Virus record (IMG/VR): IMGVR_UViG_2695420380_000015
Direction: 5' to 3' (one strand)
Origin: a virus
Taxonomy: Duplodnaviria; Heunggongvirae; Uroviricota; Caudoviricetes
Length of the DNA stretch: 39,317 nt
Shown: positions 971-39,317 of the stretch, one piece after another
Layout: every line of letters begins with the position of its first letter
Position numbering within the stretch: the first letter of the stretch is position 1
Translations under genes and position numbers: made by a program
The notes under the pieces: generated by a model
The model's database searches: none
The model's input: only the letters and a program-made list of their open reading frames with translations
Told to the model about the DNA's origin: nothing

Positions 971-2934
971 ATGTATGTCATTGCAAAAGAACTGATTGGC
1001 GCGCCCGGAATGCCTGCTACAACAAAAGGTATTCGCCAGGCATTACAACGTTACGTACAAGGGAAAAGCTGTTGTTCCCGTCGTCGCTCAGGCTCTAAAG
1101 CAACTGAATACAGCATCGACTGTTTACCTGAAGTGACGCAGCAGGCATTACGTGAACGCTACGCCCTGCAACTGATGACGCAAAAAGCCGATGAATCACC
1201 GGCTCCGGTGGTGACAAAGGCCAGACGCTCACCTGCCGTGGTTGATGCGGTGGAGGCATATCGCGGATCACCCCAACTGATGGTCGAACGCCTCAATGCC
1301 CTGACTGAAAACCAACGTAAAGTGGCAGAGGCACGAATAGCGATCGTCAGCGAGGTGCTGAAAATCGCGCAACAACCCGGCTTTAGTTGCGCTAAGGCTA
1401 TCCGGTTCCTCGTTAACAGCCTGGCACGATCACAACTGGACGAGCGCATTGTGGCAATGGTTGAGACGGCGAACGCCAAAAAGGGAAACAGCCGCGCGTT
1501 GAGTGAAATCACGCTGAAACGCTGGATTGCGGCCTTTAACAAGGCACAGAACGCCGCTGAACGCCTGCTTTTACTGGCACCGGGTAAACGCCAGGAAATA
1601 AAAGCCGAAGATATTAACTGGCTGCCCGAATTTCTGGCGCAGTATCGCCAGTCAAACGGCCGACCAATGACCGAGGCTTACGAGGATTTTGTTGCTGAAT
1701 GGCAGCACCGGCACGCTGATGAGCCTTATATGCTCGATATCATGCCCTCTTATGACACCATTCGCCGCGCAATGAAGAAACTGCCGGAAGTGGTGAAACA
1801 AAAAGGCCGGGTAACTGGCAGTGAATACCGTCAGCTTGAGGGATTCACGCGCCGCGACTGGTCCAGAATGCCGGTGAATTATGTCTGGATTGGTGACGGT
1901 CACGGCATGAAGCTGAAATGCGCGCACCCGGTTCACGGGCGGCCATTCGCACCGGAAGTGACCTTTGTTATCGACGGTGGCACGCGCTTTGTGGTGGGCT
2001 GGAGCCTTGACCTGGCTGAAAATGTTTTCGCCGTAGCCGGTGCCATACAGCACGGTATTCGCCATCATGGCAAACCGTTTCTGTATTACTCGGATAATGG
2101 CTCCGGGGAAACCGCCGACGTCCTGGATAAGGAGATTGTGGGGATACTGCCACGACTGGGGATTAATCACCCGACAGGGATTGCCGGTAATCCGCAGGGA
2201 CGGGGCATTATCGAACGGCTTAACCGCACATTACCGATGCGCATAGCCCGTAAATACCGCACCTATTTCGGGAAAGGAGCAGATCGCGAGACGTTACGTA
2301 AAACCAACCGCGATTTACGCTCGGCATTCAGTGCCCTGCAACAGGGCAAACGGCTGAACGCCCGGCAGCAGTCAGCGATGCGTGATTTACCGTCCTGGTC
2401 TGAACTGATTGATGCCATTCGTGACGGTGTTGAGTGGTACAACAACCGGCCGCACGATGAATTACCCATGAAGCCGAACGGTAAACATTACAGCCCGGCG
2501 GAGTTCAGAAAAAAACGCCTGGCGGAAGAGGACACGGAAATTGAATGGCTGTCCGATGTTGAACTGCGGGATATGTTCCGGCCGATGGTGGAGCGCCCTG
2601 TAAGACGCTGTGAAATACGCTGGCTGAATAATATTTACTACGCGCCCGAGCTGCGTGACGAGCATGGCCGTAAGGTACTTATCAGCTATGACATTCATGA
2701 TGCCGAACGAATTACCGTGCGCCGCCCGGATGGCAGCGTGATTTGCGAGGCGGTATGGGACGGCAATAAACGCGAAGCCTTCCCTGTCAGCGCGGAATAC
2801 TACAAACAGCAGCAGCGCCTTAAAGGCATGCGTAAACGCGCAGAGGAAAAAATCCGTGATGCCGAGGATGAGGTTGTCAACGTGCTGGAGCACAAGCCGC
2901 AGGAGCCCTGGCTGGAAAACATATACCGCCCTGT
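971..2934 (+). CDS. A: DDE transposase, MuA-like; 3' end lost in the N run, so the track's 762-aa read-through to 3259 is not trustworthy
   Basis: Long ORF starting 1 nt after ner. Contains a DDE-type core (WIGDGHG..., YYSDNGSGET..., IIERLNRTL) and sits ner-A-B as in Mu. Confidence 0.85.
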
Positions 2935-3238
2935 NNNNNNNNNNNNNNNNNNNNNNNNNNNNNNNNNNNNNNNNNNNNNNNNNNNNNNNNNNNNNNNNNN
3001 NNNNNNNNNNNNNNNNNNNNNNNNNNNNNNNNNNNNNNNNNNNNNNNNNNNNNNNNNNNNNNNNNNNNNNNNNNNNNNNNNNNNNNNNNNNNNNNNNNNN
3101 NNNNNNNNNNNNNNNNNNNNNNNNNNNNNNNNNNNNNNNNNNNNNNNNNNNNNNNNNNNNNNNNNNNNNNNNNNNNNNNNNNNNNNNNNNNNNNNNNNNN
3201 NNNNNNNNNNNNNNNNNNNNNNNNNNNNNNNNNNNNNN
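2935..3238. other. Run of N (masked or unsequenced) covering the transposase 3' end and the B 5' end
   Basis: 304 consecutive n characters. Confidence 0.99.
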
Positions 3239-4163
3239 TTATTGATGGCGGCGTACTGACGCAGTATGCCATCGCCAGAGAGGCGGGAATTTCCGACGGC
3301 ACATTATCGGCTTTCCGTAAGGGAAAATATAAAGGCGATAACGCTGCTGTGGCTGNNNNNNNNNNNNNNNNNNNNNNNNNNNNNNNNNTTCCCTGCGCTC
3401 CTGGTATGAGAACTGGAATAAACAAAGCGCACTGCCGGAACCGCCGCAGTTTGTGGAAACTCAGACAGTCCAGGAGCTGCGCGCACTGTTTCAGGCGGTT
3501 CGCCTGATGGGCTGTATTAACGTTATTGTGGGCGTACCGGGTGTGGGTAAAACGGCCACTGCCCGTAATTACTGCCAGGAGCAACCAAACACCTGGATGA
3601 TCACCCTGTCACCCGCGCACTCCAGCGTCACGGAGTGTCTGCTGGAGCTGGCCGATGCGCTGGGGATTGATTACACCCGCGCGAACAAAGGGGCATTATC
3701 CCGCGCCATCCGCCGTCGCCTGATGGGAACGCGTGGACTGGTGATTGTGGATGAGGCGGATCATCTTGGTATTGACGGTCTGGAGCAACTCCGGGCAATT
3801 CAGGACGCCACGGGGATCGGGATGGTGCTTATTGGTAACCCGCGCGGATTGTTTAAAGGTGGACGCCGCGCCTTTGATGATTTATCGCGCCTGTTCAGCC
3901 GTCTTGCCCGTACAAAACAACTTCGCAAGGCCAAAAAGGCGGATGTGCTGGCCATTGCCATGGCGTGGGGGATCAGTGGTGAGGCCGAGCTGGCCGTCAT
4001 GCAGGCTATCGCTGAAAAGCCGGGAGCGTTACGCGTTCTGACACATACGCTTAACCAGGCGTGGCTCACCGCCAGCGGTGAAGGCGCGGCGCTGACAGAA
4101 AAACATATTAATGCGGCCTTTAAAGAGGTTTATACCAACCCTGAATTACTCTCACAGGTGTGA
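3239..4163 (+). CDS. B: MuB-like AAA+ ATPase / transposition target-capture protein; true start is inside the N run, and the gene also crosses the 33-nt N run at 3356-3388
   Basis: Frame-0 reading from 3240 gives an HTH-like N-terminus (QYAIAREAGISDGTLSAFRKGKYKGDN). Walker A GVPGVGKT at 3531-3554. Stop at 4161-4163. Follows A as in Mu. Confidence 0.85.
3356..3388. other. Run of N inside the B gene
   Basis: 33 consecutive n characters. Confidence 0.99.
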
Positions 4164-9726: not shown

Positions 9727-10311
9727 ATGAATCGCGCTTCCCTGATTACCTTAATACATGTCGCAAAACGCGATCTACAGCTTGACCATGAGACCTACAC
9801 ATCCGTACTACTGGCAGCCACCGGCAAACCCAGTTGCCGGGATATGTCACCGGATGAGTTATCCCGCGTGCTGGATGTTTTCAAAAAACGCGGTTTTAAA
9901 GTGCGTCAGAAGCCGGTTAACCGGGCCTTAAAACCGGGGACGGTGACCGCCAAAATTCGCGCCATCTGGAAAGTGATGCACCGGCAGGGCTTTATCGCTG
10001 ATGGCGGGGNNNNNNNNNNNNNNNNNNNNNNNNNNNNNNNNNNNNNNNNNNNNNNNNNNNNNNNNNNNNNNNNNNNNNNNNNNNNNNNNNNNNNNNNNNN
10101 NNNNNNNNNNNNNNNNNNNNNNNNNNNNNNNNNNNNNNNNNNNNNNNNNNNNNNNNNNNNNNNNNNNNNNNNNNNNNNGGCCTCTGATGTGCTGGAGCGT
10201 CTCAAACGCTGGCACCGCCGCAAAATGCTGGATGTGCTGGGGATGTCAGCGCGTACAGTGATAAGTTATGAGCGCGTTTGCAGGCTGTATGAAAAATCAT
10301 TCCCCCGTTAA
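9727..10311 (+). CDS. GemA-like (Mu gp16-like) early regulatory protein; interior masked by N run 10010-10178
   Basis: Position immediately upstream of the Mor/C-family gene, and N-terminal sequence (MNRASLITLIHVAKRDLQLDHETY...) typical of Mu-like gp16/GemA proteins as remembered. Confidence 0.6.
   Translation: MNRASLITLIHVAKRDLQLDHETYTSVLLAATGKPSCRDMSPDELSRVLDVFKKRGFKVRQKPVNRALKPGTVTAKIRAIWKVMHRQGFIADGGXXXXXXXXXXXXXXXXXXXXXXXXXXXXXXXXXXXXXXXXXXXXXXXXXXXXXXXXXASDVLERLKRWHRRKMLDVLGMSARTVISYERVCRLYEKSFPR
10010..10178. other. Run of N inside the GemA-like gene
   Basis: 169 consecutive n characters. Confidence 0.99.
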
Positions 10312-33366: not shown

Positions 33367-33888
33367 TTACTGTGGCTGCTCAGGCCATTTAATGGCGTTA
33401 AATTCAGCTTCTGTTTTAATGGCGGGTAGTTCCATTTTCTTCACCTGACTGATGTATGCCATCCATTGGGTAAGTGCTGCTCTGTCTTCATCGCTGATGG
33501 TGCCCAGTTGTAGCTCCGTTCTCCAGTCATTAATTTTTTCATATGCCTGATTAAGATATGACTGGCGCATTGCTTCCAGTTTTCTTGCGTAGTTAACCGG
33601 AATACGGGAGATTATGCCATTATCAAACTTCCAGTTTCCTGAAATATCCGTGCCTTCAGGGAGTTCATCGACCTCAACCACAGAAAACCCCGCAGGATAC
33701 AGCGCCGAGGCGTCCTGTGATATTGAGCAGATAACGCCGCTGTCAGGTGTTATGCAAAGTTTATATTTTTTGGTGAATAATGGCAGGGATTCGTAGAAAT
33801 CCTTACCATCTTCACTCTGGAAATACTGAACATTATTACCATATGGCATATTTTCAGGATAATAACGGGTTATATTTTTTAGTTCCAT
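33367..33888 (-). CDS. Tail fibre assembly protein (Mu U/U'-like), currently on the minus strand
   Basis: 173-aa ORF with RBS AGGAGG, directly downstream (on the minus strand) of the alternative tail-fibre C-terminal cassette. Confidence 0.8.
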   Translation of the reverse strand: MELKNITRYYPENMPYGNNVQYFQSEDGKDFYESLPLFTKKYKLCITPDSGVICSISQDASALYPAGFSVVEVDELPEGTDISGNWKFDNGIISRIPVNYARKLEAMRQSYLNQAYEKINDWRTELQLGTISDEDRAALTQWMAYISQVKKMELPAIKTEAEFNAIKWPEQPQ

Positions 33889-33939
33889 AAAATCCTCCTG
33901 GAAATAAATCTGTTTTAAAATATATTATTTACTGACTAT

Positions 33940-34378: not shown

Positions 34379-34951
34379 ATGCTGATTGGGTATATCAGGG
34401 TGTCAACAAATGACCAGAATACGGCGCTACAAAGAAATGCGCTGGAATGTGCAGGATGTGAGCTGTTTTTCGAAGACAGAATAAGCGGTAAGACAAGGGA
34501 GCGTCCCGGACTTAAACGCGCATTAAAGCGACTCCGGCCAGGGGATACCCTGCTGGTCTGGAAACTGGATCGCCTTGGACGCAGTATGCAGCACCTTGTC
34601 CTTTTAACAGAAGAACTCCGGCAACGCGGCGTTAACTTCCGCAGCATTACGGACAATATTGATACATCCACTCCCATGGGACGTTTCTTTTTCCATATAA
34701 TGGGCGCGCTGGCGGAAATGGAGCGGGAACTCATTATTGAACGTACACGCGCGGGTCTTGCTGCTGCCCGTGCTCAGGGGCGTCATGGCGGCAGACCTCA
34801 GAAACTGACAGAGAAAGAGCGGGAGCAAATCGCCCGTTTGCTGGCTAATGGCGAGTCCCGTAAACAAATCGCACTGATATTTGATATTGGCCTTTCCACC
34901 CTTTATCGTTATTTTCCTGCCTCACCAGCTCCGTCACCAAAAGTACCGTGA
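34379..34951 (+). CDS. gin: Serine recombinase DNA invertase (Gin/Hin/Pin/Cin family)
   Basis: 190-aa product with MLIGYIRVSTNDQNT (catalytic Ser), LVWKLDRLGRSM, MGRFFFHIMGALAEMERELIIERT and a C-terminal HTH, as in Gin. Confidence 0.9.
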   Translation: MLIGYIRVSTNDQNTALQRNALECAGCELFFEDRISGKTRERPGLKRALKRLRPGDTLLVWKLDRLGRSMQHLVLLTEELRQRGVNFRSITDNIDTSTPMGRFFFHIMGALAEMERELIIERTRAGLAAARAQGRHGGRPQKLTEKEREQIARLLANGESRKQIALIFDIGLSTLYRYFPASPAPSPKVP

Positions 34952-35036: not shown

Positions 35037-37091
35037 ATGTCAGACTCCAAGTGGAAAATGCTCTCCGCCATGCCCGGAGAGTTTTCAGTCAAGGTTGCCG
35101 GTGGCACGGTGGCATTTATTGAAAGCCCTTTCCGCCCTTCGGGTAATAAAGGGGGGATCACCTTCGCAGACTGCGTGATCCGCTTCAGCACGAAAGAGCC
35201 ATTATGGGTAATGCCGGTATCCGGTAATCCCAGTGCAGAAATCACCAGTTCAGGCGTGACTGGCATCATTCCAATCACATCTGACGTGGCCGGAACGCTC
35301 ACGCCCTCCGACTGGAATGCACCGGATAACGCCGGGCCTTCCGGTAGCACGAATGGCAGCAGTTCAGAGCCGGAATATTACTTTGTTGTCATTCTCGCGG
35401 GTCAGTCAAATGGCATGGCCTACGGCGAGGGGCTGCCGTTACCGGATTCGTTTGACCGCCCGGACCCACGCATTAAGCAACTGGCACGCCGCAGTACGGT
35501 AACGCCCAACGGTACGTCGTGTACATACAACGACATCATTCCGGCAGACCACTGCCTGCATGATGTTCAGGATATGAGCGGGATAAACCACCCGAAAGCT
35601 GATCTGGCAAAAGGCCAGTACGGGACTGTCGGTCAGGGGTTGCATATTGCCAAAAAACTGCTTCCCTATATCCCACAGAATGCCGGGATACTTCTGGTGC
35701 CCTGTTGTCGTGGCGGGTCAGCATTCACCACTGGAGCCGACGGCTCATTCAGTGAGGCCAGCGGTGCTTCCGCTGATTCTTCACGCTGGGGGGCCGGTAA
35801 ACCTCTGTATCAGGACCTGGTAAGCCGCACCAAAGTCGCGCTGGCGAAAAACCCGAAAAACAAACTTCTGGCTGTGGTCTGGATGCAGGGAGAGGCAGAC
35901 CTTGCCTCAGGAAGCCAGCAGCATAATAGTTTATTCACGGCCATGGTTCAGCAGTTCAGAACTGACCTGGCTCCGCTTGCTGCGCAGTGCGTGAGTGGAA
36001 ATGCCACCACGGTGCCGTGGATTTGCGGTGATACCACGTATTACTGGAAAAACGCTGGCACCGATAAATATGAGGCAGTATACGGTGGCTACAAAGGCAA
36101 GGAAGCACAGAAAATTTTCTTTGTACCGTTCCTGACGGATGAGAATGGACAGAGCACGCCAACGAATGCTCCGGCGGAAGACCCGGATATTGTGGCTGTC
36201 GGGTATTACGGTGCAGCATCCCGAACCCAGGGCAGTTTTGTTTCGACACAGCGTGACAGCCATTTCAGCTCATGGGCACGCAGGGGCGTCATTTCAGACC
36301 GTCTGGCCTCAGCTATTATGCTCCATGCAGGGCGCACGGCTGAACTGATGCGCGGGCAGACCGTGACACCACCGGATGAGAAGCCGTCACCTGATACACC
36401 ATCAAAACCGTCCACGCCACCCGCAGACACCACGACGATGAGTACGCTATTTGCTTACCGGGCATCTGAGTCTGAAGGACGGTTGACACCACAGGGTTGG
36501 GCTGCCGGAGGTGGCAAGGCTCAAATCGTGGATGATGCCGGAGCCAGCGGGGGTAAGGCAATGAAACTGACCAAGGAAACAGGAAGAGCCCCCTGGTACC
36601 TTGAGCATGATGCTGGTAATGGTGCGGACCTGCTGGGTAAAGGTGGTCTTGTCAGTTGTCGTTTTAAACTCGATGGCGCGCTTACGGCTAATCAGTACGC
36701 ACTGGCGCTGTACTGGCCGGTTTCTGCCCTGCCGCAAGGGGTTACTCTGGAAGGAAATGCCGGTCATAACCTGCTGGCATCGTTCTACGTACAGAGCGAT
36801 GCCACAGACCTTAACGTGATGTATCACAAAGGAAACACGGCGCAGAACACGAAGCTGGGGTCATTCGGCGCATTTAATAACGAATGGCATACGCTGGGCT
36901 TCCGTTTTGCCGGTAACAACAGTATTGAGGTGACGCCGGTCATTGATGGTAAGGACGGGACACCATTCATGCTGTCGCAGTCTCCGGTCGGCACGTTTAC
37001 GGCAGACAAGTTGCGCGTGACCGATATCACTAAAAATGCGACTTACCCGGTACTGATTGACAGTATCGTGGTGGAAGTGAATAACGCGTAA
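35037..37091 (+). CDS. SASA-family (SGNH-like) O-acetylesterase resembling NanS / prophage NanS-p sialate O-acetylesterase, with extra N- and C-terminal domains
   Basis: 684-aa ORF. Core motifs YYFVVILAGQSNGMAYGEGLPLPD, GQYGTVGQGLHIAKKLLP, VPCCRGGSAFT, WMQGEADL resemble E. coli NanS (YjhS) as I remember it. Flanked by an about 120-aa N-terminal domain and an about 250-aa C-terminal domain. Confidence 0.7.
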   Translation: MSDSKWKMLSAMPGEFSVKVAGGTVAFIESPFRPSGNKGGITFADCVIRFSTKEPLWVMPVSGNPSAEITSSGVTGIIPITSDVAGTLTPSDWNAPDNAGPSGSTNGSSSEPEYYFVVILAGQSNGMAYGEGLPLPDSFDRPDPRIKQLARRSTVTPNGTSCTYNDIIPADHCLHDVQDMSGINHPKADLAKGQYGTVGQGLHIAKKLLPYIPQNAGILLVPCCRGGSAFTTGADGSFSEASGASADSSRWGAGKPLYQDLVSRTKVALAKNPKNKLLAVVWMQGEADLASGSQQHNSLFTAMVQQFRTDLAPLAAQCVSGNATTVPWICGDTTYYWKNAGTDKYEAVYGGYKGKEAQKIFFVPFLTDENGQSTPTNAPAEDPDIVAVGYYGAASRTQGSFVSTQRDSHFSSWARRGVISDRLASAIMLHAGRTAELMRGQTVTPPDEKPSPDTPSKPSTPPADTTTMSTLFAYRASESEGRLTPQGWAAGGGKAQIVDDAGASGGKAMKLTKETGRAPWYLEHDAGNGADLLGKGGLVSCRFKLDGALTANQYALALYWPVSALPQGVTLEGNAGHNLLASFYVQSDATDLNVMYHKGNTAQNTKLGSFGAFNNEWHTLGFRFAGNNSIEVTPVIDGKDGTPFMLSQSPVGTFTADKLRVTDITKNATYPVLIDSIVVEVNNA

Positions 37092-37097
37092 GCAGGA

Positions 37098-37139
37098 TAA
37101 AAAAATGCCGCCGGTAAGGGAAAACAAGAAACCGGCGGC
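37098..37139 (-). terminator. Rho-independent terminator oriented for leftward transcription: stem GCCGCCGGT / ACCGGCGGC with a T tract on the minus strand (A run 37098-37106 on plus)
   Basis: 9-bp perfect stem read from the sequence; the U tract follows the hairpin only when read on the minus strand. Confidence 0.5.
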
Positions 37140-37235
37140 AAAAAGATCGTTATATCCAAAGCAAAAAATGCAGTGCACCTTTTTACCTAACAGATATTAC
37201 CGGTGTCAACACCATGTCAATAATTGGGAGGGATA

Positions 37236-37418
37236 ATGACATTTTTACAGCTTATTTTATTGTATTTCTGCACGGCAGTATGTGCGTTATATCTGGTGAG
37301 TGGTGGTTATAAGGCCATCAGAAATTATGTTCGCCGCAAAATTGAGGACGCAGCAGCTGAAAAACTCAGTAAAACAGCGCAGGTAACTCCGCTCCCAAAA
37401 GACCCGACCCAGCCCTGA
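37236..37418 (+). CDS. Small membrane protein (60 aa, single TM)
   Basis: ATG at 37236 with GGGAGG 4 nt upstream; hydrophobic N-terminus FLQLILLYFCTAVCALYLV. Confidence 0.45.
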   Translation: MTFLQLILLYFCTAVCALYLVSGGYKAIRNYVRRKIEDAAAEKLSKTAQVTPLPKDPTQP

Positions 37419-37453
37419 TTGCAGGGCTTTATTCCCGCATAAGGAGGATATAC

Positions 37454-37708
37454 ATGCCAGAAATTAAAGGCACCGTCACTGAAGACCTGGTAAAACAGGC
37501 ACTGTATTCCGGTGAAGTAAATAAGTTGCTGAAAGCGCAGGTCCGCAAGGATTTTGAGGCACAAATCGACACTTACGTTGATGAAGTGCTGGCAAAACTT
37601 ATTGGGCCAGCAGTTGCGGCCAGTGATGCTGATAATGAGCCGAAAACCGACGCGCAGCCAGAGCAACCAGACCCGGCTCAGCCCGGAACTGACAGTACCA
37701 TGATGTAA
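37454..37708 (+). CDS. Small acidic hypothetical protein (84 aa)
   Basis: Strong RBS AAGGAGG 7 nt upstream of the ATG. Confidence 0.5.
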   Translation: MPEIKGTVTEDLVKQALYSGEVNKLLKAQVRKDFEAQIDTYVDEVLAKLIGPAVAASDADNEPKTDAQPEQPDPAQPGTDSTMM

Positions 37709-37875
37709 CAATACAAACCGGTGGTGTCCTCTGCCGGTTTGACACTAATGAAAACATCTTTGCCGCTATCCAGCCATATGTAATCGCTGGATAGTATTTC
37801 GTATTCAGAAATATAGCTGCTTATGGAGCAGTCAATCCTGCTTCCCCATCCGGGCAGGCAAATGAACCGGTATCA

Positions 37876-38169
37876 TTAGTCCGATTCACGCTTTTGTAGA
37901 ATCGTTCCCAGAATGCTATACAGCTCATTAGCCTGTTGCTCCATCATTGAGACGGAGGCTATACGGTGCAAAGTGATTTCAGGAGGTGGCACACCTCCAT
38001 CTTCTTGCTGTGGAGGAAAAACATAAGATTTAATAAAAAAGTTGAAGCATATGAACTCTCCCGCACTCGAACTGTATTTGCAGGCATCTGAATAATCGGA
38101 AAAATAATCATTATAGATTTCCGCATTTTCAATCATTTTTCGATTTCTCGTCGTTACATGATTGTCCAT
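37876..38169 (-). CDS. Hypothetical protein (97 aa) in AT-rich DNA, antisense to the neighbouring genes
   Basis: Minus-strand ORF in a clearly AT-rich segment between the esterase module and the mom promoter region. Confidence 0.4.
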   Translation of the reverse strand: MDNHVTTRNRKMIENAEIYNDYFSDYSDACKYSSSAGEFICFNFFIKSYVFPPQQEDGGVPPPEITLHRIASVSMMEQQANELYSILGTILQKRESD

Positions 38170-38357
38170 AGCAGCCTCTTACGCTGGCAATTAACCAATT
38201 GACTTCTATAAATTAGTTGATTTGTTTGCTTTGCGGTATTCAAATGTACAATCATTCAGCACTTATGCGTTACAGCACCGTTTAAAATTAGTGATCAAAC
38301 TCATAAATTTTCGCTAATGACATTTCGTGTTATTTGTTGTATCAATTAAATAAATCA

Positions 38358-38382
38358 AATCGATCGTTTTTGTCGATCGATT
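38358..38382. promoter_or_regulatory. Perfect dyad AATCGATCG-N7-CGATCGATT carrying two GATC sites, upstream of com-mom (candidate C-activator and/or Dam/OxyR-controlled operator of the mom promoter)
   Basis: 9-bp inverted repeat read from the sequence; a third GATC lies at about 38295. The Mu mom promoter is regulated through upstream GATC sites and a dyad C-binding site. Confidence 0.45.
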
Positions 38383-38425
38383 GAGTGATAAAGATATCAA
38401 CAACAAAGCAGGAGGTTATGCGGCC

Positions 38426-38626
38426 ATGTATCGAAACATACGGTGCCGACATTGTAACAAGCTACTGGCACGAGCCAGCTTCAGTTATCTGGAAGTTAAA
38501 TGTCCGCGCTGTAAAACCCTCAATCAAATCACATCTCAGAGCGCCACAGAGCACCCCACATACACAAGGAAATCCTGTCGTGGGGAACAGAAAGCAAGTT
38601 ACATCCCGTATCATCAGCACGCCTGA
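38426..38626 (+). CDS. com: Com-like zinc-finger translational activator of mom
   Basis: ATG at 38426 with AGGAGG 10 nt upstream. CxxC...CxxC motif ([10 protein letters not shown]...VKCPRCKTL) as in Mu Com; overlaps the 5' end of the mom frame. Confidence 0.75.
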
Positions 38627-39317
38627 ACTTATTCACTATAACGACAATATCGTCGGTTATGGCTCCCGTGAGTTACGGGTTGAGACAATAAGTTGCTGGC
38701 TGGCCCGGCTGGTCGTCGTCAATAAACATTACAGCCATCGTTTCGTAAATAATTCCTACCTTCATCTGGGCATATTTTCAGAACGGGAGCTGGTTGGCGT
38801 AATGCAATGGGGTTATGCCCTTAATCCAAACAATGGTGCACGCGTCGTAACTGGCACGCAGAACCGCGAATATATGGAGCTTAACCGGTTATGGCTGCAT
38901 GACTGTATGCCGAGAAACTCCGAATCAAGGGCAATCAGTTACGCGCTCAAACTAATCAGACAACTTTATCCGCAGGTGCAGTGGGTTCAGTCGTTTGCAG
39001 ATGAGCGTTGTGGCTGTCTTGGTGTCGTGTACCAGGCAAGCAATTTTGATTATGTAGGCAGTCATGAAACAACATTCTATGAACTTGATGGCGAGTGGTA
39101 TCACGAGATTTGCAAGAATGCAATCAAACGAGGAGGACAGCGAGGTGAACATCTGCGGGCTAATATCGATAGAGCCAGTGTTCATAAATTCCGTCAGTTT
39201 CGTTACATCCGGTTTCTGGACAAGAGAGCCAGAAAACGCCTTAACACAAAGCTATTCAAAGTCCAGCCTTACCCAAAACCACAAACAGTTAAAACTGGTT
39301 TGAAAGAGAGTGAATGA
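38580..39317 (+). CDS. mom: Mom-like DNA modification protein (anti-restriction); start uncertain, GTG at 38580 is the nearest in-frame start before the com stop
   Basis: Long ORF ending at the window edge, overlapping com in another frame; com-mom arrangement at the right end as in Mu. Confidence 0.7.

Follow-up and report, generated by a model that had tools for sequence, protein, structure and literature searches.

Between an esterase gene and com at the right end of a Mu-like prophage of Escherichia coli (IMG/VR record IMGVR_UViG_2695420380_000015, whose whole stretch of 39,317 nucleotides is called the window here) stands a hairpin with the layout of an intrinsic terminator that faces leftward, against the direction of the genes on both sides of it, and the question raised by this locus is which transcript such a terminator ends. 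The gene order at this end is tail fibre, genes of the invertible segment, gin, a gene for a 684-aa esterase, DUF1378, DUF826, a minus-strand open reading frame (ORF), com and mom. The original prediction, made from the letters alone, had described positions 37098–38380 as one AT-rich module of separately acquired cargo, with a terminator implying convergent or antisense transcription into the esterase gene. The analysis reported here suggests that this stretch likely comprises parts of three units lying in the gin–com spacer of a prophage of the type of Sakai Sp18, namely a lambdoid block, a swappable cassette and the mom control region, and that the lambdoid block holds an unannotated small RNA (sRNA) gene of the EcOnc33 type. 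The elements are further copies of known kinds and constitute no new system; the useful outcome is that the sRNA gene and the cargo slot have been recognised and delimited.

Anatomy of the leftward terminator

The hairpin at 37106–37140, originally called an inward-facing terminator, is probably the 3′-end of a minus-strand sRNA gene of ~75 nt. Folding of the hairpin yielded −23.5 kcal/mol (z = −4.7), and none of 200 shuffled sequences folded as well. The layout of an intrinsic terminator was found on the minus strand only, where the stem runs into U7, while on the plus strand the stem is followed by AAAAAGAUCG; because the U-tract exists only on the minus strand, the hairpin would act as an intrinsic terminator only for leftward transcription, as its originally proposed orientation had it. 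A simple terminator scan missed this hairpin because its loop is longer than 8 nt. Furthermore, the 3′ portion of the predicted RNA displays the layout of an Hfq-binding module, in which CUUUUU is followed by a 10-bp GC-rich stem and then by AUUUUUUU. A sigma-70-type promoter read from the sequence (Table 1) sits between the hairpin and the ribosome-binding site of DUF1378, and a second TTGACA occurs on the minus strand at 37220–37215. The hairpin begins 14 nt past the esterase stop codon and the predicted sRNA ends ~8 nt short of that codon. Leftward transcription at the hairpin is thus retained from the original prediction, but it would not run into the esterase gene, since the short sRNA gene would end at this terminator, a few nucleotides short of the esterase stop.

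No Rfam family reached its gathering score anywhere in the window. A sub-threshold match to Esr41 at 37097–37179 (−), with 22 bits against a gathering score of 102 and E = 0.67, was rejected as an identification; Esr41 is encoded on SpLE1 next to iha, and the match served solely to point to an architecture like that of an sRNA.

Conservation, homologues and proposed action of the sRNA

The sRNA type of the window was found in 355 of 5426 complete E. coli genomes, and no annotated RefSeq feature lies under the sRNA among the matches listed. To describe its variation, the spacers between esterase and DUF1378 genes were collected from 65 IMG/VR loci with related esterases and from copies in E. 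coli genomes, which gave 23 distinct spacers. All except one of them (22/23) keep TT[GT]AC[ATG]-N17/18-TAAAAA together with a GC-rich hairpin followed by U5–8, and the predicted RNAs range from 72 to 104 nt. The promoter spacers and the transcribed bodies fall into at least four types that are unalignable with one another, and one of the types comes from a module with an esterase of only 44% identity. In three pairs of the stem both partners change (G-C to C-G, G-C to A-U, and U-A to A-U), and 86% of the stem cells are paired compared to 22–60% in controls with a slid partner column. The hairpin is present in the lambdoid copies too, with a U-tract polarity that is antisense in all variants, which indicates that the terminator is part of the lambdoid block and did not arise from the Mu context. 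Collectively, the retention of promoter and terminator amid this turnover of sequence argues for function.

Published data on homologues agree with this prediction. EcOnc33 of Sakai prophage Sp6 lies on the minus strand, has a peak of Hfq crosslinking and analysis of cDNA (CRAC) in five datasets, was flagged for a terminator, and gave a Northern signal of ~71 nt (Tree et al. 2014, Mol Cell 55:199, Table S2; PMC4104026). The EcOnc33 Northern probe, AAATGTCGTTATATCCAAAGCAAAACATGCAGGAC, is an exact match to the plus strand of the Sp6 esterase–DUF1378 spacer (NC_002695.2 1557239–1557273), and it therefore detects a minus-strand RNA, as predicted here. Aligned with the Sp6 EcOnc33 locus, the window RNA is 83% identical overall (68/82 aligned columns) and 88% identical in the 5′ part (29/33). 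The EcOnc33 coordinates given with these data are offset by 105–137 nt from the current genome version, which fits a 128-nt length difference that we take to exist between two Sakai genome versions. The same source lists EcOnc37 in the Sakai Mu-like prophage Sp18 (Tree et al. 2014, Table S2; PMC4104026). With a shift of ~128 nt, EcOnc37 is placed at ~5077468–5077538, a position that takes in the body and terminator of the corresponding element in the ECs_4993–ECs_4994 spacer; by this calibration we infer that EcOnc37 lies in the Sp18 esterase–DUF1378 spacer. Neither EcOnc33 nor EcOnc37 is mentioned in any searchable main text or has an Rfam entry, and literature searches for them or for the sRNA sequence returned nothing functional. 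The "backwards" terminator thus marks an sRNA gene that carries no RefSeq or Rfam annotation, though its homologue is Hfq-bound in E. coli O157:H7. Two further sRNAs, PasA and PasC of enteropathogenic E. coli (EPEC) E2348/69, are Hfq-dependent, Northern-validated RNAs of 79–85 nt whose genes lie directly downstream of, and antisense to, sialic-acid esterase genes of prophages (Pearl Mizrahi et al. 2021, PMC8550237; Zhu, Shabalina & Storz 2026, bioRxiv 10.64898/2026.05.13.724894).

Several observations weigh against the interpretation as an sRNA gene within three units. The −10 hexamer TAAAAA lacks the usual T at −7, the 15-nt terminator loop is larger than typical, and the placement of EcOnc37 depends on a genome-version shift that was calibrated only indirectly. 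The Mu-like prophage L012 has no sRNA element yet keeps DUF1378, and by this layout the sRNA is dispensable for the neighbouring genes. For the adjacent cassette, promoter scans found no convincing sigma-70 consensus match for its minus-strand gene, orf97.

The imperfect −10 hexamer would also suit an explanation in which the hairpin is only a structure in the rightward mRNA, be it a stabiliser of the esterase 3′-end, a processing barrier or a relic terminator, and in which no sRNA is made from this copy; a position so close behind the esterase stop codon is one where mRNA-stabilising stem-loops are common. We consider this improbable, because the A7/U7 polarity is antisense in all variants, because the promoter hexamers at their fixed spacing outlast a complete turnover of the surrounding sequence, and because Hfq crosslinking recovered the Sp6 homologue as a minus-strand RNA, which gave its ~71-nt band with a matching probe. 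A similarly low probability is given to the proposal that the sRNA and DUF1378 form a pair resembling a type I toxin-antitoxin system or a "lysis guard", in which the sRNA would pair with the 5′ leader of read-through transcripts and block the small membrane protein in lysogens, and would restrain the downstream holin genes in lambdoid phages. The DUF1378 product is a 60-aa single-pass membrane protein whose gene lies immediately next to the sRNA gene, which is upstream of it and divergent, an arrangement that the layouts of tisB/istR-1 and zorO/orzO resemble, and the EPEC PasA and PasC genes occupy the equivalent place directly upstream of a holin gene. The case for such a pair is nevertheless weakened by L012, in which an intact DUF1378 stands without the sRNA, and by the EPEC prophages, which carry PasA and PasC without DUF1378, so that the obligatory co-occurrence of toxin and RNA expected of a type I system is broken in L012 as well as in E2348/69. 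PasA and PasC also have many partners encoded elsewhere by RIL-seq (ligation and then sequencing of interacting RNAs), and only a leader beginning upstream of 37174 is complementary to the window sRNA, which leaves the DUF1378 ribosome-binding site uncovered.

On the preferred reading as an EcOnc33-type sRNA gene, the window sRNA would be transcribed leftward from its own sigma-70-type promoter and so would not depend on late transcription to be made in a lysogen. Judged from its homology to EcOnc33 and EcOnc37 of E. coli O157:H7, it is most likely made in the lysogen and held by Hfq, and it probably pairs through the U-rich 5′ 33 nt with mRNAs made elsewhere. Transcripts of the esterase gene would read through the hairpin into DUF1378 and DUF826, and because the sRNA is perfectly complementary to this rightward transcript, a local antisense effect is possible. 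The locus provides a defined and uncharacterised sRNA for target mapping.

Pairing between the 5′ part of the sRNA (37141–37174, −) and the leader and start of com (38386–38445, +) was calculated in a reduced scan at −22.2 kcal/mol, where the minimum of 400 random background segments was −21.7. This pairing is a weak lead: it is AU-rich, has large internal loops and was calculated for the window allele, the 5′ bodies of other alleles being different.

A probable mosaic of three units in the gin–com spacer

The stretch 37000–38450 has a 100%-identical copy in 14 complete E. coli genomes, in which RefSeq names its genes as DUF6645 protein, DUF1378, DUF826, hypothetical protein and Com; E. coli JKHS016 and DLI.5a are strains with such a copy. 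The gap between gin and com is 3474 bp in this prophage and 94 bp in phage Mu. The GC content of 37098–38380 is 42.5%, where that of the window is 53.8%, and no more than 0.1% of segments of this length fall below it; masked runs of N in the early region (2935–3238, 3356–3388 and 10010–10178) skew such composition statistics unless they are excluded. The low GC content is unevenly spread, with 50% in DUF826 and 45% in DUF1378, and the most AT-rich part, 37800–38425 at 33–40% GC, contains the lowest 300-nt segments of the whole sequence. The second most AT-rich spot of the window, 33700–33900 (33–36% GC), overlies the invertible segment's tail-fibre assembly gene, which is on the minus strand. 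The features are listed in Table 1.

Table 1. Features of the prophage right end, in window coordinates
Feature	Position	Strand	Details and basis
gin	34379–34951		
NanS-p-type sialate O-acetylesterase gene	35037–37091	+	Pfam SASA and DUF6645
Predicted Hfq-type sRNA, EcOnc33 homologue, ~75 nt	37099–37174	−	homology, fold, stem covariation
Predicted sRNA, 5′ part	37174–37141	−	U-rich, single-stranded
Predicted sRNA, terminator stem	37140–37131 with 37115–37106	−	perfect 10-bp arms, 15-nt loop
Predicted sRNA, U7 tail	37105–37099	−	A7 on the plus strand
Predicted sRNA promoter, sigma-70-type	37209–37180	−	−35 TTGACA 37209–37204, 18-nt spacer, −10 TAAAAA 37185–37180; read from the sequence
DUF1378 gene	37236–37418	+	60 aa; Pfam PF07125, E = 9e-32; PHROG 494; Prokaryotic Genome Annotation Pipeline (PGAP) name; hydropathy
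Small hairpin	37411–37428	+	overlaps DUF1378 stop codon; CAGCCCTG-ATTG-CAGGGCT then TTATT; −12.1 kcal/mol, z = −2.4
DUF826 gene	37454–37708	+	84 aa; Pfam PF05696, E = 6e-16; PHROG 311
Closing hairpin	37714–37741	both	perfect 8-bp arms; fold z = −3.7 (+), z = −2.9 (−)
Variable cargo cassette	37746–~38310		boundaries from alignments
orf97, gene for 97-aa acidic orphan protein	37876–38169	−	39.8% GC; ribosome-binding site AAGAGG 38180–38175, 5 nt before ATG
mom control region	38312–38425	+	aligns with Mu and relatives; all prophages alike again from ~38312
Palindrome AATCGATCG-N7-CGATCGATT	38358–38382		two GATC sites; inverted repeat
Candidate Pmom, TTGTCG-19-TATCAA	38370–38400	+	promoter scan; overlaps palindrome
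com	38426–38626	+	Pfam Zn_ribbon_Com; PGAP name
mom	38580–39317	+	overlaps com; PGAP name; PF25680 Mom in relatives

Judged by sequence comparison, unit 1 (about 35365–37745) is the right-hand part of a lambdoid late-region block, consisting of the catalytic and C-terminal domains of a NanS-p-type esterase, the predicted antisense sRNA gene, DUF1378, DUF826 and the closing hairpin. The esterase matches the PDB entries 3PT5 (NanS, E = 2e-117, residues 110–428) and 6YP6 (NanS-p C-terminal domain, E = 7e-98). At the nucleotide level the gene is homologous to lambdoid nanS-p from near 35365 (about codon 110) onward, over 35365–37115 (blastn, query 2066–3816). Residues 1 to ~110 (35037–35366) are unrelated to DUF1737, which is present in the Sp6 and E2348/69 esterases and absent from those of the window and Sp18; this N-terminal part is common and specific to the versions in Mu-like prophages, Sp18 included. 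An N-terminus unlike the lambdoid DUF1737 places the left recombination joint inside the gene, where the N-terminal domain would have been swapped. The same order of esterase, DUF1378 and DUF826 was found in prophages of the Shiga toxin (Stx) type and other lambdoid prophages (L006, L007, L087), directly upstream of the genes for class II holin, YdfR and endolysin or lysozyme. Among Mu-like prophages, the block was present in every Sp18-type one inspected, including Sakai Sp18 and those inserted at eight different sites in the chromosome, and the conservation stops just past the closing hairpin in the alignment.

The DUF1378 protein has a pI of 9.3, a single N-terminal transmembrane helix (hydrophobic residues 3–21) and a basic C-terminal part. 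The DUF826 protein has a pI of 4.2 and a helical N-terminal stretch of ~57 aa followed by a Pro/Gln/Asp-rich tail, and its gene is preceded by AAGGAGG at 37441–37447, 6 nt 5′ of the ATG; no PDB relative of it was found. Searching the four proteins with the hidden Markov models of PADLOC for defence systems returned nothing except a sub-threshold match of DUF826 to PbeC (E = 0.0076, 12.9 bits), which was dismissed. DUF1378 and DUF826 are probably co-transcribed with the esterase gene, because the hairpin at 37106–37140 has no U-tract in the rightward direction. The small hairpin that overlaps the DUF1378 stop codon may be a weak attenuator or stabiliser, and the closing hairpin is likely a bidirectional terminator between the convergent DUF826 and orf97. 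In the literature both families are mentioned only as ORFs between nanS-p and S to which no function is assigned, as in a survey of Stx2a phages (PMC10462455), and searches for ybcW and ynfO returned nothing functional. The two genes go with the esterase rather than with lysis genes, and as a low-confidence guess their products could be a membrane-associated pair that serves alongside the esterase and not in lysis.

Two side observations concern the prophage right ends as such. The prophages of strains M18, M3 and CI5 (L003, L005 and L008) have no annotated gin between their tail-fibre assembly and esterase genes, and part of the group may have lost the invertible-segment system. Near-identical right ends (L088–L095, L001–L005) adjoin varied host genes, among them flhDC, lptFG, eut, mntP, elf fimbrial genes, flgL and an hsdR-type gene, as expected for a recently active transposable phage.

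Unit 2, as far as its sequence tells, is a swappable moron-type cassette, with orf97 as the predicted gene of an acidic cytoplasmic protein divergent from com–mom. The slot has at least four different contents among otherwise collinear prophages. It holds an ORF of 97–100 aa in this window, M3 and CI5; the unrelated 154-aa ECs_4996 with C-terminal CxxC pairs in O157 Sp18 (L086 4627–5091, −); a 175-aa protein with a zinc ribbon and a transmembrane segment in M18 (L003 4330–4857, −); and a 66-aa plus-strand ORF with a pseudogene in FORC_069 and HCP4S3 (the 66-aa ORF at L002 4285–4485, +). None of the alternative genes (154 aa, 175 aa and 66 aa) matched a PADLOC model. Hairpins near orf97 lie at 37714–37741, 37766–37794 and 37817–37831. 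The encoded protein may be a lysogen-expressed factor of host or phage interaction.

Whether orf97 is a gene at all was weighed against the view that the AT-rich DNA between DUF826 and com is non-coding, serving as regulatory or spacer DNA for the mom promoter. Such a view could draw on the narrow range of the ORF, whose homologues occurred only in E. coli and Shigella in a search by word index and in a full HMMER run over 1.8 billion representatives, and on the absence of any Pfam, PHROG, PADLOC, NCBIfam or PDB sequence match. An AlphaFold2 model from seven near-identical sequences showed three helices at a predicted local distance difference test (pLDDT) score of 50.7, too poor for a fold search; no consensus promoter was found, and PGAP calls an internal start that gives a shorter protein of 86 aa. 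We regard a non-coding nature as unlikely, if less so than the alternatives weighed above, because the frame stays open at 97–100 codons in a copy diverged to a synonymous divergence (dS) of 0.29, and because the ratio of nonsynonymous to synonymous divergence (dN/dS) is 0.34 in frame as compared to 0.6–1.2, with 3–9 stops, in the other five frames. The open frame at this divergence and the low dN/dS make orf97 look like a real gene; it has AAGAGG 5 nt 5′ of its ATG, and it is retained, always between DUF826 and com, in prophages at eight different, independent insertion sites. The originally proposed single module, in which the two plus-strand genes, the antisense gene and the terminator were acquired separately as one AT-rich piece with convergent transcription into the esterase gene, is the least probable of the readings considered, and we hold it to be very improbable. 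Its AT-richness, its absence from Mu and its mixed strands would be consistent with one acquisition, but in lambdoid phages the hairpin and the plus-strand genes accompany the esterase, they are conserved throughout the Sp18-type prophages inspected, variation is confined to the orf97 cassette, the composition of DUF826 is ordinary, and the terminator halts leftward transcription before the esterase gene.

With the stretch read instead as parts of three units, the individual genes of the original prediction were all recovered: a small gene for a transmembrane protein (DUF1378), a small acidic protein gene with a strong ribosome-binding site (DUF826) and a minus-strand ORF of 97 aa. The marked AT-richness holds for the stretch as a whole but is concentrated in 37800–38425, and the description as separately acquired cargo is right in that the DNA is accessory, given the 94-bp gap in Mu, and wrong in that it is not one module, since the plus-strand genes belong to the lambdoid esterase block. 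Likewise, the variability to be looked for among Mu-like prophages was found in the orf97 cassette and not in the DUF1378/DUF826 block.

Unit 3 is the mom control region. GATC sites lie at 38293, 38362 and 38375, so that only two of the three clustered GATC sites of Mu are kept; a further GATC (38293) lies 69 bp upstream. The palindrome stands 43 bp from the com start codon compared to 69 bp in Mu (~26 bp closer), and the mom control architecture may differ from that of Mu. Taken together with the exchanges in unit 2, the DNA just upstream of the mom promoter is a cargo-exchange slot in this phage group.

A more far-reaching and speculative proposal, to which we attach only a small probability, would join these parts. 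The esterase, the antisense sRNA and DUF1378/DUF826 would be one functional unit moving between unrelated phage families, the lambdoid and the Mu-like, with the sRNA acting locally on the read-through transcript as a guard or type I antitoxin-like brake on the small membrane protein (and, in lambdoid phages, on the holin as well) and with any host regulation on top; separately, the slot beside mom would be a diversity hotspot for lysogen-expressed defence or counter-defence genes, orf97 included.

Comparison with known systems

The closest frame for the locus is the right end of phage Mu, in which the G segment is followed by gin, com and mom. The order from gin to com–mom, the overlap of com and mom, and a GATC palindrome upstream of com (AATCGATC...GATCGATT) are shared, and the differences are the gin–com distance and the palindrome position given above. 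The esterase block corresponds to the nanS-p region of Stx and other lambdoid phages, with the order Q, stx, nanS-p, DUF1378/DUF826 ORFs and S holin (PMC10462455). The order, from the catalytic and C-terminal domains of the esterase through the sRNA spacer to DUF1378 and DUF826, is shared at ~70–88% nucleotide identity, whereas the block of the window lies between gin and com–mom of a transposable prophage with no adjoining Q, stx, holin or endolysin, and its esterase has ~110 unrelated aa in place of the N-terminal DUF1737. The orf97 cassette resembles phage morons (Juhala et al. 2000, as cited in PMC4104026) in being AT-rich (33–40% GC versus 54% for the window), on the strand opposite to its neighbours, bounded by hairpins and replaced by unrelated genes in relatives; it differs from them in that no promoter was identified.

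PasA and PasC resemble the window sRNA in their antisense position after an esterase gene, the TTGACA −35 box, the A-rich −10 and a large-looped GC hairpin with U7, and PasC ends 2 nt from the esterase stop codon. Pairwise identity is, however, 50–53%, a score equalled by 1–3% of shuffles, an nhmmer match with E = 0.024 was restricted to the promoter of the esterase-proximal unit, and the terminator stems differ (GCCGCCGG in the window, GCCAGCG in PasA/PasC). PasA and PasC also adjoin a holin gene and not DUF1378/DUF826, and they reside in lambdoid rather than Mu-like prophages. Membership in the PasA/PasC family was therefore set aside: position and architecture agree, sequence homology is not established, and these sRNAs are filed as positional analogues or possible distant relatives. 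As an observation on the EPEC locus itself, prophage PP2 of E2348/69 (L013 2460–2760; NC_011601 743259–743559) has two tandem antisense sRNA-like units 3′ of the esterase gene, PasA and a PasC-like unit abutting the stop codon, each with its own TTGACA box and terminator, and these tandem units may explain the published 236-nt minor PasA species.

EcOnc33 and EcOnc37 are the nearest counterparts. Both agree with the window sRNA in lying between a NanS-p-type esterase gene and DUF1378 on the opposite strand, with matching promoter hexamers, terminator and U-tail. The ~71-nt Northern band of EcOnc33 compares with 75 nt predicted for the window RNA, and the host prophage of EcOnc37 is Mu-like, as is that of the window. 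The window copy departs from EcOnc33 by U for G at position 7, a shorter terminator loop and another pre-stem sequence, and the body of the Sp18 (EcOnc37) allele is unalignable with the window RNA (47% identity). By these comparisons, an sRNA gene has travelled with the sialic-acid esterase from lambdoid phages into transposable Mu-like prophages, which widens the recent picture in which prophage sRNAs (Pas, AsxR/AgvB) cluster around nanS-p genes.

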